DNA of 64,000 nucleotides from Escherichia phage FH3. Positions within the stretch are counted from its first letter, which is position 1; the number at the start of each line of letters is the position of its first letter. The stretch lies in sequence record OR886155.1. One strand, written 5' to 3'. The notes below the pieces were generated by a model. That model made no database searches, was not told the origin of the DNA, and worked only from the letters and a program-made list of their open reading frames with translations. The position numbers were made by a program, and so were the translations under genes. Below are positions 838-12,177 of the stretch, piece by piece.

Positions 838-926
838 TAGCGAGGATGACAGGGTTCGAACCTGCATACTCCAATTACTTCTTTAACGACCGCTTAGAAG
901 GCGGGGAAGATACATCCTCGCTAGAA
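838..926 (-). other. tRNA-like structured element (not a canonical tRNA)
   Basis: Minus strand: 9-bp helix GCGAGGATG/CATCCTCGC closing a GCAGG-TTCGAAC-CCTGT T-arm-like hairpin and a CCGC-CTTCTAA-GCGG hairpin; no D-arm could be placed. Confidence 0.25.
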
Positions 927-930
927 GCTC

Positions 931-1371
931 TTATTTATTATTGAAACCCTTGCTCCAGTAATACTTACCGTTGCAAGACCTACTACAAAAATGGTTTTGG
1001 TTTTCTTTGTGGACCTTGTTACCCCTTCTCTCAAAAGATGTGCCACAATTACTACAAATCAAAGTAATGACCACACCCTTAGGTCTGTTCTCTAAGGTCT
1101 TCTTTAAGTGATCATTTGTGCTTAGAATCTGAAGGTTAGATATCTCATCATTGGTTGGATTTTGATCAACATGATCTACCTCTTCCTCCGCAGTAAGATA
1201 CCTCCCTACATGGCAAGACATTAAATACCTTGCATAAGAGATCGTAGTCCTATCTGTGTTAGAGTTGAATAGGTCAACACGCCTCCTCCCATCCTTACTT
1301 GTCCTTAAATACCCCAACCTCCAGTCATTGATGAAGGGGTATTCCAACTCTATTTTCAATACCACCTCCAT
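931..1371 (-). CDS. HNH-family endonuclease (putative homing endonuclease)
   Basis: HVDQNPTNDEISNLQILSTNDH motif plus C-terminal CSNCG...CSRSC zinc-finger-like cluster. Confidence 0.55.
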   Translation of the reverse strand: MEVVLKIELEYPFINDWRLGYLRTSKDGRRRVDLFNSNTDRTTISYARYLMSCHVGRYLTAEEEVDHVDQNPTNDEISNLQILSTNDHLKKTLENRPKGVVITLICSNCGTSFERRGNKVHKENQNHFCSRSCNGKYYWSKGFNNK

Positions 1372-1394
1372 TGAGCTAAGGGTGCTAGATTTGT

Positions 1395-1604
1395 TTAACT
1401 AAAGATACGAATGGCTACATCGTGACCAATATGACCGGGAACTTTATGCTGTTCTATTTTCAAACAGTGTTTACAGATACGAGATACACGAGATTCTTTT
1501 CTCTCGACCGGAGTGTCTTTAGCGTGGGTGATATGTAGGTTCTCAGTGATCACCCACTCGTGTTTACATCCAGAATCTTCGGGCTTTTTCTTACGAAAGA
1601 ACAT
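1395..1604 (-). CDS. small Cys/His-rich protein, Zn-ribbon paralog C
   Basis: Internal start MFFRKKK...; CKHEW...CKHC pattern related to the two upstream ORFs. Confidence 0.35.
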   Translation of the reverse strand: MFFRKKKPEDSGCKHEWVITENLHITHAKDTPVERKESRVSRICKHCLKIEQHKVPGHIGHDVAIRIFS

Positions 1605-1612
1605 AACACCCC

Positions 1613-1777
1613 TTAGATCAGATCTGTTTTCTTGTGCAGACCACACACTTTACAGCGAGAGTAGATACGCAACCCTTGTCGCTCTCTGTCAGTAAGTTTA
1701 TTTGTGATCGTCAGTTCATAAGTATGAAGATCTTCCCACTCATGGAAATGAAAGAAGCGTTTGAACCATTTGATCAT
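1613..1777 (-). CDS. small Cys/His-rich protein, Zn-ribbon paralog B (54 aa, below ORF-track cutoff)
   Basis: My translation: MIKWFKRFFHFHEWEDLHTYELTITNKLTDRERQGLRIYSRCKVCGLHKKTDLI; near-identical architecture to paralog A. Confidence 0.35.
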   Translation of the reverse strand: MIKWFKRFFHFHEWEDLHTYELTITNKLTDRERQGLRIYSRCKVCGLHKKTDLI

Positions 1778-1786
1778 AATGATTCC

Positions 1787-1948
1787 TTAGATTACATCAC
1801 GATGACTAACATCACCACACACCTTACACTGAATAACGTAACGTGTGCCCTTGTCGTTATTCCCATCTGAATCTGTATAGACCAGAGGGTGAGTATTAAT
1901 AATCTTCCAATCATGACAATGAAAGACACGCTTTAGCCACTTGAACAT
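1787..1948 (-). CDS. small Cys/His-rich protein, Zn-ribbon paralog A
   Basis: C-terminal part of ORF 1787-2122 from internal Met: MFKWLKRVFHCHDW...CKVCG. Confidence 0.35.
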   Translation of the reverse strand: MFKWLKRVFHCHDWKIINTHPLVYTDSDGNNDKGTRYVIQCKVCGDVSHRDVI

Positions 1949-1955
1949 ATTAACC

Positions 1956-2207
1956 TCAAGCACAAGCAGGGAGAGTGATGATTTTATACTGACCATCAAA
2001 CTCACTAAACAAACCCAAGAATGTAGGACTGTACGTACCAGTGCAAACAAACTCATCAAACAATGCGTTATAGCTAGGCTTAATCTTCCAAGCCCATACA
2101 TAACCCATCTTGTCAATTGCAATGTAACGAGTGTTCAGAGGAACAGTCATCATCACACCGTCAACTTCGATCACTTTAGTGATTGGTGCAGCTTGAAAGT
2201 TTTTCAT
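1956..2207 (-). CDS. hypothetical protein
   Basis: ORF track, 83 aa, same strand as flanking genes. Confidence 0.3.
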   Translation of the reverse strand: MKNFQAAPITKVIEVDGVMMTVPLNTRYIAIDKMGYVWAWKIKPSYNALFDEFVCTGTYSPTFLGLFSEFDGQYKIITLPACA

Positions 2208-2389
2208 ACTTTACCTTTGATAAAAATATCATTACCACAGACACAGCATGAACGAACAACAGTAGCGCCACGCTGAACGATACGAACCTCTTCCTTAACC
2301 AGATTAATACGAGCACCGCAGCAAGGGGAGTTGACATAAGAGTAACCAGCTTGCGTATGTTTTATTGTTTGCTTAGACATTTTATTCAA
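2204..2389 (-). CDS. small Cys-rich protein (CC...CC)
   Basis: ORF track; SPCCG...SCCVCG pattern. Confidence 0.3.
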   Translation of the reverse strand: MNKMSKQTIKHTQAGYSYVNSPCCGARINLVKEEVRIVQRGATVVRSCCVCGNDIFIKGKV

Positions 2390-2726
2390 GATCTCTCAGT
2401 TGTTCAGCCATTTGTTCGCATTCGTTGATGCAGAAAGCTTCTGTTCTTGGAACCCCGTTAGGGTTGAACCGTGTCTTATCACCTGCATGGGCACAATCAA
2501 ATCCGATTGTATTTAAACCACTCATCTCTTCAAGGGTGTCTTGCCATGTGACACCACCATGAACACTTACATAACAAACCTCTTCCTTTCCGTTATATCC
2601 GGTGAAGTTTTTATGTTTTAAGCTGTCTGGTAGCTCTACATATCCACAAAAATGGGAGTCGTTCATGTGCATAATCACAGCACGAAGACCTGATTTAGTG
2701 ACCCAATCTTTAACCATGCGTCTCAT
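2382..2726 (-). CDS. hypothetical protein
   Basis: ORF track; start moved to internal Met because the listed start overlaps a terminator hairpin. Confidence 0.35.
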   Translation of the reverse strand: MRRMVKDWVTKSGLRAVIMHMNDSHFCGYVELPDSLKHKNFTGYNGKEEVCYVSVHGGVTWQDTLEEMSGLNTIGFDCAHAGDKTRFNPNGVPRTEAFCINECEQMAEQLRDLE

Positions 2727-2770
2727 ATAAGCACCTCTTGTTAGTTTAAGTAAGAGTTGTCCCTTAATTA

Positions 2771-2798
2771 AAACAACAAAGGCCACCCGAAGGCAGCC
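2771..2798 (-). terminator. rho-independent terminator (minus strand)
   Basis: Minus-strand hairpin GGCTGCC-TTCG-GGTGGCC followed by U-rich tract; near-copy at 50101-50128. Confidence 0.4.
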
Positions 2799-3306
2799 TT
2801 TTATTTGTTAACTGTTATACGTCCAACCACCTTGCTTGTTACGAATGGCTGACATTGCATGAATCCAAAAGCCTTCCAGTTTCAGAGCACCGTTAGCTAC
2901 TGCATCCATACGTTCAGGGCGGTTCATACGTTTGGTTGATACTTTCATACCTATCTCTCTTTGTTAGTGGAGGCATTATTGCCAGTTGATATAAGGAATA
3001 GCCCTAGTCAGTAGACTAATCCTGACCGCGTACTCATTGCCGACCTTCTCTGCCTAAGAGTTCAGGTTCTAGAGCTATCTCTTATTCCAACTGGTGAAGA
3101 CTCCCTACCCCTAGGAAGTCTCCTGAATCCCAAACTAATACGTACCCCTACATATCAGAAAGTCTTTCGAAAATTAACAGGTTTTAGTCTAGCACCGGAT
3201 GTTCGAGCAAGCTCTCCCTAGCGGTGTGGCATATGCCTGAATTAATAAGTTAATGAGGAACACCCTCACATAGCCCTCTGATAAACACAAGGGCTATAAG
3301 TCGGTG

Positions 3307-3525
3307 TTACTTTTGAGTCAAATACAAATCAGGGCGAGGCATAACAGTGGTTGATGGATTGAAATTACCAACATAACCAGTGCTTAGATTGGCAGCCCTG
3401 CGTAGTCCATTAGAGAGATCATCATCTAGCATCAGCCAGAATTTTTGATCATAAGAGAAAACATCTCCCCCTTTAAGATCTTCCACATTTGCATATTTAG
3501 GAGTCTCAACTACTTTAATTTCCAT
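3307..3525 (-). CDS. small early protein, paralog family member 2
   Basis: VEDLKGGDVF...FWLMLDDD...PRPD; clear similarity to ORF 57-278. Confidence 0.45.
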   Translation of the reverse strand: MEIKVVETPKYANVEDLKGGDVFSYDQKFWLMLDDDLSNGLRRAANLSTGYVGNFNPSTTVMPRPDLYLTQK

Positions 3526-12015: not shown

Positions 12016-12177
12016 ATGAATCTAATTAAAGTATTTAGACGGATGAAGTGTAAGCACAATTACTATCTTCTTCGTAAAGCTTACGGGGATGAAAGAATAC
12101 ATGGTTTGTATCTATCAACATGGAAGTGTAAGGAATGTGGTAAGTTGAGATTCAGTACGTGGGTGGATAAGCCTTAA
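12016..12177 (+). CDS. small Zn-ribbon-like protein (53 aa, below ORF-track cutoff)
   Basis: My translation MNLIKVFRRMKCKHNYY...WKCKECGKLRF. Confidence 0.3.
   Translation: MNLIKVFRRMKCKHNYYLLRKAYGDERIHGLYLSTWKCKECGKLRFSTWVDKP

Follow-up and report, generated by a model that had tools for sequence, protein, structure and literature searches.

The stretch analysed here as a whole, 64,000 nt of Escherichia phage FH3 (record OR886155.1; hereafter the window), carries three short open reading frames (ORFs) lying back to back on the minus strand between positions 1395 and 1948. The original prediction, drawn from the DNA letters, described them as three tandem Cys/His-rich paralogs that might bind metal, and our positions, strand, lengths (53, 54 and 69 aa) and motifs agree with it exactly. 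ORF1 (1787..1948, minus strand) encodes a stand-alone HxH...CxxC mini-protein of 53 aa (MFKWLKRVFHCHDW...CKVCG; complete protein MFKWLKRVFHCHDWKIINTHPLVYTDSDGNNDKGTRYVIQCKVCGDVSHRDVI). ORF2 (1613..1777, minus strand) encodes a protein of 54 aa that we take to be the tandem paralog of ORF1 (MIKWFKRFFHFHEW...CKVCG; complete protein MIKWFKRFFHFHEWEDLHTYELTITNKLTDRERQGLRIYSRCKVCGLHKKTDLI), and both belong to the family PHROG 8294. ORF3 (1395..1604, minus strand) encodes a CxH...CxxC mini-protein of 69 aa with a predicted extra C-terminal helix (CKHEW...CKHC; complete protein MFFRKKKPEDSGCKHEWVITENLHITHAKDTPVERKESRVSRICKHCLKIEQHKVPGHIGHDVAIRIFS) and belongs to PHROG 13426. By sequence count, the net charges of the three products are +2, +4 and +5, respectively, and their N-termini are basic (MFKWLKR, MIKWFKR and MFFRKKK).

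ORF1 and ORF2 are both too short for an ORF cutoff of 60 aa, and in a mechanical ORF list a 111-aa ORF started by TTG conceals ORF1, while an 83-aa ORF started by GTG conceals ORF3. The ATG of each gene is preceded by a Shine-Dalgarno (SD) sequence overlapping the preceding gene's stop codon. GAGG at 1954-1957 (TGAGG) shares bases with the TGA that ends the upstream 83-aa gene, AAGGA at 1784-1788 (TAAGGA) overlaps the stop codon of ORF1, and AAGGGG at 1609-1614 (TAAGGGG) overlaps that of ORF2. As read from the sequence, such an arrangement is typical of translational coupling.

The trio is flanked by the conserved 83-aa gene (1956-2207) and by a tRNA-Arg locus. Inside the trio we found no convincing promoter or terminator, and the closest terminator-like hairpin lies upstream, at 2778-2801 on the minus strand. 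This hairpin is strong and GC-rich, has a UUCG tetraloop and leads into a T-run (AAAGGCTGCCTTCGGGTGGCCTTT GTTGTTTT). It is located within the early operon, upstream of the gene at 2382-2786, and could serve to terminate or attenuate transcription, or else to stabilise or process the RNA.

Coding evidence and the early-cluster setting

Positions 1200-3200 share 99.7% DNA identity with Escherichia phages 1-6af and 1-6bf and 92-97% with many other Kuravirus (phiEco32-like, Gordonclarkvirinae) phages; judged by its sequence, the window is a Kuravirus (phiEco32-like) phage of E. coli. All three ORFs are annotated coding sequences (CDS) in phage 1-6af, where the hypothetical proteins 16af_00100 to 16af_00102 (ORF1 being 16af_00102) sit among a long series of small minus-strand genes. 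In phage SU10, CDS 69-125 count as early genes driven by sigma-70 promoters at the genome's right end (PMC4281155). The SU10 homolog lies between SU10_0102 and SU10_0106 (numbering taken from the notes in the SGF2 record) and thus falls within this early range. The ortholog in phiEco32 is gp107, and the early cluster of phiEco32 is the most diverse part of its genome, with host takeover as its likely role (PMC8948821). By homology with SU10 and phiEco32, ORF1-3 are part of the early gene cluster.

We gauged selection on 7-9 Kuravirus orthologs, using pairwise ratios of nonsynonymous to synonymous differences (pN/pS). Variable sites by codon position numbered 3/1/11 in ORF1, 11/6/14 in ORF2 and 8/4/28 in ORF3, with pN/pS of 0.04-0.15, 0.19-0.5 and 0.10-0.18, respectively; the ORF2 substitutions that we inspected are located in the loop of residues 22-34. 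According to this comparison, all three genes are under purifying selection within the Kuraviruses. At the DNA level, ORF1 and ORF2 share a 58-nt repeat of 72% identity and two short blocks, and the spacing of 171-174 nt between the copies means that the reading frame is kept from one gene to the other. Furthermore, conservation at the protein level extends to Pseudomonas, Synechococcus and rV5-like phages, and homologs with 26-45% identity and invariant H, C, C and G positions occur in unrelated phages whose DNA cannot be aligned to the window.

The original prediction had named similarity caused by a repeated non-coding element as the finding that would overturn it. This explanation, or the related one of spurious ORFs that are never translated, gains something from the GenBank records in which homologs of ORF1 and ORF2 carry no annotation (ECBP2, SU7 and YW01) and is otherwise without support. 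It is contradicted by substitutions that fall mainly on third codon positions with pN/pS well below one, by a repeat spacing that preserves the frame, by the SD sequence before every gene, and by distant protein relatives that keep the same four residues where the DNA has diverged beyond alignment. The explanation by a non-coding repeat therefore fails; we find it hardly conceivable and regard it as already refuted. ORF1-3 are, on this comparative evidence, almost certainly real translated genes.

An intact yet unannotated gene of the ORF1/2 type is present in the records of ECBP2 (positions 1501-1647 of locus L003), SU7 (positions 1501-1665 of locus L004), YW01, PGN6866 and EcK-vB. These missing annotations are a systematic miss of genes below 60 aa.

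Two protein families and a predicted zinc ribbon

ORF1 and ORF2 are 39% identical by BLASTP (E 3e-13), far above chance. The PHROG 8294 profile matched ORF1 at E 2.4e-24 (residues 1-53 on profile positions 1-56 of 56) and ORF2 at E 1.5e-17, and did not match ORF3 at E<=0.1. The PHROG 13426 profile matched ORF3 at E 3.9e-36 (residues 2-69 on profile positions 3-74 of 78), and matched neither ORF1 nor ORF2. Judging from these alignments, there can be scarcely any doubt that ORF1 and ORF2 are tandem paralogs, so this part of the claim of three paralogs holds; ORF3 belongs to a separate PHROG family, and its linkage with the pair is marginal in sequence.

Genes of the ORF1/2 type are found in essentially all Kuravirus-like phages. 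Our tblastn search of phage genomes located them at 145 places in 112 records, so that many records have two copies. Distant copies occur in Pseudomonas Bruynogheviruses (TL, SL4, PaP4 and others), in Pseudomonas phage ventosus and in Synechococcus phages B3 and B23. A word-indexed protein search retrieved 34 relatives, and an exhaustive profile search retrieved 1,290 cluster representatives (50% identity) at E<=1e-3, 70 of them at E<=1e-10. Almost all of the best 150 of the 1,290 are 48-60 aa long and match end to end, and the clusters are almost all stand-alone proteins from phage contigs. The consensus reads M-x-(K/R)-(W/L)-L-K-x-L-F-(x)-H-x-H-x-W-x-x-I ... G-x-R-Y-x-x-x-C-K-x-C-G-x-(I/V)-K-x-x-D. 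Among 32-36 diverse members, H12, C41, C44 and G45 are invariant, and H10 and W14 are more than 90% conserved.

P0094 and LUZ24 gp12 depart from the stand-alone form. P0094 (182 aa; positions 2917-3465 of locus L024, metagenomic contig SRR12266079_669186) is encoded in a phage-like array of small ORFs and consists of three fused domain repeats joined by proline-rich linkers, mirroring at the protein level the tandem arrangement of genes. As first ligand pairs, these repeats have C-I-H, H-G-H and C-P-P-H, which makes CxH and HxH interchangeable within the ORF1/2 family. In LUZ24 gp12 (220 aa; positions 601-723 of locus L023), the first ~41 residues are a decayed domain of the ORF1/2 type that has kept the first ligand pair and lost the CxxC, and that a frameshift appears to have joined to the gene downstream. 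The sister phages TL, oldone and SL4 have the 55-aa gene intact; the TL record does not annotate it, and there it overlaps gp08 in a different frame.

The ORF3 family is present in about half of the Kuravirus records, and its homologs with 42-50% identity come from Vequintavirinae (rV5-like phages): Cronobacter CR3, CR8 and CR9, Klebsiella KaOmega, Escherichia A73 and Pectobacterium POP15. In a curated alignment of 20 sequences, H15, D30, R42, C44, C47, E51, H53, V55, G57, A64 and I67 are invariant. Over all 26 hits of the family, most of these positions remain more than 90% conserved, including H15, C44, C47 and H53.

In all three proteins, two candidate ligand pairs stand about 20-30 residues apart, as in zinc ribbons: H10-x-H12 with C41-x-x-C44 in ORF1 and ORF2, and C13-x-H15 with C44-x-x-C47 in ORF3. 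AlphaFold2 predicted for ORF1 (alignment of 32 sequences, pLDDT 84.5) a helix at residues 3-8 and strands at 14-25, 31-41 and 47-52, and for ORF3 (20 sequences, pLDDT 82.6) strands at 17-27, 35-44 and 50-56 followed by a helix at 61-68. Both models are zinc-ribbon-like three-stranded antiparallel sheets with the ligand pairs at the hairpin ends; the first pair directly precedes strand 1, and the CxxC lies in the turn linking strand 2 to strand 3. The structure prediction proposed as a check thus came out in favour of such a fold at pLDDT 83-85, and metal binding is plausible given the invariant H12, C41, C44 and G45, the H10 conserved above 90%, and the modelled placement of the ligands at the ends of the sheet. 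According to the models, ORF1-3 probably have a zinc-ribbon-type fold.

Whether ORF3 descends from the same ancestor as ORF1 and ORF2 is a closer question. BLASTP gave ORF3 an E-value of 1e-3 against ORF2 and of 0.014 against ORF1, and hhalign, run on the families, gave E-values of 5e-4 and 6e-3 (probability 31% and 7%, respectively). We searched all 982 stop-to-stop ORFs of the window with a profile built from 35 diverse proteins of the ORF1/2 type, leaving ORF3 out. ORF3 ranked third (13.9 bits, E 2.3e-3), directly behind ORF1 and ORF2, with an alignment that covers the whole core. In a shuffle test, in which ORF3 scored 13.8 bits, 1 of 5000 full shuffles reached its score, as did 4 of 5000 that left the four ligand residues where they were. 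A positive score against the ORF1/2 profile was obtained for 22 of 24 ORF3-family proteins, and every method gave the identical register, CxH on HxH and CxxC on CxxC. The reciprocal search with the ORF3-family profile was not significant for ORF1 and ORF2 (E 5-6). Searching the viral models of the BFVD with the ORF3 model returned its own family and then many anonymous phage proteins of 50-70 aa, a few of them annotated as LEF5-C or IF2-type; no link to the ORF1 family was established there.

ORF3 might instead be an unrelated small zinc protein, brought to the CxH...CxxC ribbon by convergence and no more than a neighbour of the pair. We hold this to be a substantial possibility, though short of an even chance. 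Its separate PHROG family, the low hhalign probabilities and the failed reciprocal search are what convergence would lead one to expect, as are the different taxonomic spread of its family in the Vequintavirinae and the extra conserved C-terminal helix with the invariant E51, H53, G57 and A64. Common descent would better explain the shared register, the position of ORF3 as the top non-member match of the ORF1/2 profile in the window, the rarity with which ligand-preserving shuffles reach its score, and the positive scores of nearly all members of its family. The predicted order of strands and placement of ligands are also alike, and CxH and HxH first pairs coexist within the single protein P0094. 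We lean slightly toward homology of ORF3 with ORF1 and ORF2 on these sequence signals. The original description of a third, more diverged paralog thus survives in a weaker form: ORF3 is probably a remote relative with the same motif architecture, albeit an unproven one.

Two further small genes of the window carry Cys motifs. The plus-strand ORF at 12016-12177, considered as a fourth paralog, was rejected because its match to the profile is confined to the CxxC turn (E 0.16) and it belongs to PHROG 7696. It is the first gene of the rightward cluster and encodes a 53-aa mini-protein with a CKH...CKECG pattern (MNLIKVFRRMKCKHNYY...WKCKECGK), laid out like the ORF3 motif and weakly matching a PHROG annotated as 'zinc-finger domain protein'. 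Two genes upstream of ORF1, the minus-strand ORF at 2204-2389 (61 aa, 58 aa in relatives; PHROG 18461) has paired cysteines, SPCCG...SCCVCG, and its product is probably another small zinc-binding protein, as far as the motif tells. With this gene, the early region is unusually rich in Cys/His mini-proteins.

Variable gene content beside a homing endonuclease

The number of mini-genes at this locus differs among Kuraviruses. All three are present in the window, 1-6af, SGF2, EcoN5, CHD5UKE1 and ECBP2 (with an ORF1 of 48 aa in ECBP2). SU7 has ORF2 and ORF3, NJ01 and O18-011 have ORF1 and ORF3, phiEco32 and Paul have a single divergent allele with ~50% identity to ORF1, and Bas93 and Bas94 have none. 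With zero to three genes and alternative alleles at exactly the same locus, the mini-genes behave as an accessory cassette, and such variable content is the signature of an accessory early-region gene rather than of a core function. Among the 25 loci that we compared (L001-L025), multiple copies occur solely in Kuravirus-like phages. Other phages carry single copies of the family in arrays of small ORFs of unknown function near genes for DNA ligase, RNA ligase, helicase, single-stranded DNA-binding protein (SSB) or methylase.

Directly downstream of ORF3, an HNH endonuclease gene (931-1371, minus strand; PHROG 14913, E 1e-54) is inserted in a tRNA-Arg(UCU) gene. What remains of the canonical tRNA is its first 19 nt, at 1367-1385 on the minus strand (GCACCCTTAGCTCAATGGA), and the start codon of the HNH gene lies within this remnant. 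The tRNA is intact in relatives that do not have the HNH gene (SGF2, EcoN5, SU7 and phiEco32). In O18-011 and CHD5UKE1, the remnant and the HNH gene are followed by a second, different and intact tRNA-Arg(UCU), so that the homing cassette appears to arrive with a substitute for the tRNA.

In the window, a tRNA-like element at 841-919 (minus strand) stands in place of the canonical tRNA, with an extended stem of 21 bp spanning 826-933. The element has a UCU anticodon loop and a normal T-arm, 4 nt instead of a D-arm, and a variable region of ~20 nt. ARAGORN missed it, the Rfam tRNA model scored it at 29.7 bits against a gathering score of 29, and its fold energy has a z-score of -4.9. Because it is 90-93% conserved in Bas93 and Bas94, where no tRNA is annotated, the element may be more than debris, either a working tRNA of non-canonical form or a signal for processing.

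This neighbourhood raises the possibility that the mini-genes are selfish or neutral filler, hitch-hiking in a recombination hot spot of tRNA-Arg and HNH homing endonuclease and contributing nothing to infection. The locus does adjoin a tRNA gene that has been struck at least twice by different HNH cassettes, and its gene content is mosaic. Strong purifying selection within the Kuraviruses and conservation of the family across very distant phages, on the other hand, imply a selected function, and we judge filler to be very unlikely.

Closest known proteins and the proposed role

The closest structural match to the ORF1 model in a Foldseek search of the PDB was the N-terminal zinc ribbon of NrdR, a repressor of transcription (PDB 9gex, 9fxk and 7p37), with 41 aligned columns, a probability of 0.99, a TM-score of 0.53 and an E-value of 0.3; over the top hits, which are NrdR ribbons, probabilities were 0.95-0.99 and E-values 0.3-0.5. 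The ORF3 model returned nothing informative from the PDB. NrdR and ORF1 both have two metal-ligand pairs ~25-30 residues apart around a small antiparallel sheet. However, NrdR uses four Cys and continues into a nucleotide-sensing ATP-cone domain (~150 aa in total), whereas ORF1-3 are 53-69 aa long, have His in the first pair, contain no second domain and give no NCBIfam hit.

Weak signals converge on ribbons of transcription and translation factors. The family profile matched aIF2-beta (1k81) at E 0.28, one family member matched Pfam Zn_Ribbon_TF at E 0.053, and the ORF1 sequence weakly matched a 'baculo_LEF5_C superfamily protein' of Acinetobacter phage ME3 (E about 1); an ME3 protein with the same LEF5_C annotation was matched by the ORF3 model at E 0.055. 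The ribbons of TFIIS, LEF-5 and aIF2-beta have four Cys and lie within larger factors, the scores fell under curated thresholds, and ORF1-3 do not have an acidic hairpin of the TFIIS type. Zinc-finger proteins of the DksA/TraR C4 type, which combine a coiled-coil hairpin with CxxC-x17-CxxC, are common small phage binders of RNA polymerase. We ruled out this type, as our models are all-beta apart from one short helix, the first pair consists of HxH or CxH with a spacing of 28 residues, and there is no Pfam match.

ORF1-3 occupy the same genomic niche as small early host-takeover proteins such as phiEco32 gp79 and LUZ24 gp4/Mip, which are likewise encoded by short genes of a sigma-70-driven early cluster (PMC8948821, PMC4635203), and this is the functional class in which we would place them. 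Between these proteins and ORF1-3 there is no detectable sequence relationship, and the targets of gp79 and Mip are known (RNA polymerase/sigma-70 and MvaT, respectively). Neither is known to be a zinc protein.

These resemblances bear on the possibility that ORF1-3 are nucleic-acid-binding regulators, which bind DNA or RNA or insert into RNA polymerase in the manner of the NrdR, TFIIS/LEF-5 or aIF2-beta ribbons, and tune phage or host transcription or translation instead of blocking a host protein. A best fold match that is a DNA-binding zinc ribbon, the weak profile match to the aIF2-beta ribbon, the LEF5-C and IF2-type annotations among the BFVD neighbours of ORF3, and the net basic charge with basic N-termini would all suit such regulators, and phiEco32-like phages do reprogram host RNA polymerase, via gp36 and gp79 (PMC8948821). 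All of the fold and profile matches are non-significant, though, and the proteins have no helix-turn-helix or other DNA-reading element. Moreover, a regulator of transcription essential to the phage should not be readily dispensable, yet Bas93 and Bas94 have none of the genes at this locus and phiEco32 has one copy. We consider regulators of this kind rather unlikely.

We modestly favour the overall reading that ORF1-3 encode translationally coupled, early, accessory zinc-ribbon mini-proteins, with ORF1 and ORF2 as a duplicated pair and ORF3 from a second family. The three genes would be translated in a coupled manner from a long leftward early transcript. Each product would be a basic stand-alone mini-protein whose three-stranded sheet is pinned by one metal ion, most likely zinc, held by the first pair before strand 1 (HxH in ORF1 and ORF2, CxH in ORF3) and by the CxxC in the turn that joins strands 2 and 3. 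ORF1 and ORF2 would have arisen through a tandem duplication in a single family, and ORF3, with the same core and a C-terminal helix, would represent a second family, probably related to the first at a great distance. Produced within the first few minutes after infection, the proteins may act stoichiometrically as small rigid modules with a host protein or a nucleic acid as their target, in the service of host takeover or counter-defence, and duplication and allele exchange may yield copies of differing specificity. We put forward only tentatively, at somewhat under even likelihood, that they are early accessory binders of a host target. The suggestion of transcription or host-takeover factors in the original prediction is therefore carried over in part: the position in the early cluster fits host takeover, but neither a characterised sequence homolog nor a significant structural match speaks for a particular activity.

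Several observations weigh against the favoured reading. In searches with the three proteins and 35 family members, no Pfam, NCBIfam, PADLOC or PDB-sequence match rose above threshold. The best Pfam scores were 14.3 bits for PHD_4 (cutoff 30.6) and 13.2 bits for DUF7848 (cutoff 24.5); no Pfam family matched more than two of the 35 members or any at E <0.019, and the zinc-finger families PHD_4, Zn_Ribbon_TF, CPxCG_zf and DUF7848 did not reach their gathering thresholds. The single PADLOC match, to Cas10 (E 0.028, 11 bits), is at chance level, and ORF1-3 correspond to no known anti-phage defence component in the PADLOC models. The matches to solved structures all had non-significant E-values, as expected for 50-70 residues, so that the fold class rests on the predicted models and the ligand pattern. 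In some members of the ORF3 family, the Cys before H15 is displaced by 2-7 residues, which makes the fourth ligand of ORF3 uncertain; it may be this Cys or H53. The neighbourhoods of distant members offer no recurrent partner gene and no functional handle. Finally, the pattern of presence and absence could reflect neutral recombination beside a homing-endonuclease hot spot rather than selection for host interaction.

Full-text literature searches on zinc-ribbon early phage proteins returned nothing on the ORF1/2 family and no functional study. Of the copies of the family, just one, the decayed LUZ24 gp12 fusion, comes from a phage that had its early genes put through a toxicity screen, and the main text of that study does not mention gp12. 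PTXU04, a phage with a genome-wide CRISPRi-ART knockdown screen, was set aside as a non-Kuravirus (92 CDS and a 2,198-aa polyvalent protein).

A bolder proposal is that the proteins of the ORF1/2 family are zinc-ribbon inhibitors, directed at host factors or immune systems, of a class that has gone unrecognised. Specificities would then be kept side by side as tandem arrays in Kuraviruses or as triple fusions as in P0094, alleles would be swapped at a fixed early locus, and ORF3 would be a second branch of the superfamily. This seems distinctly unlikely to us.

The genes themselves were already annotated as hypothetical and catalogued in PHROGs, their fold class is well known, and as they stand they are ordinary phage "dark matter" from widespread families, and no surprise. 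ORF1-3 are simply members of PHROG 8294 and PHROG 13426, no different from the rest, and these families have neither a functional annotation nor a Pfam counterpart; orthologs annotated as hypothetical include phiEco32 gp107, NJ01_122, NJ01_123, ECBP2_0103, ECBP2_0104 and CR9_052. What is new here is the two-plus-one family structure, the size and invariant ligands of the ORF1/2 family, the predicted fold, the copy-number polymorphism and the triple-domain fusion. If the proposed role were true, Kuraviruses with zero to three mini-genes at one locus would be an easily tested natural experiment, in which differences in host range or defence sensitivity could be mapped to a zinc module of 53-69 aa, small enough for structural and binding work. 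Finding the target of one member of the ORF1/2 family, with about 1,290 clusters and no Pfam entry, would annotate thousands of phage genes.

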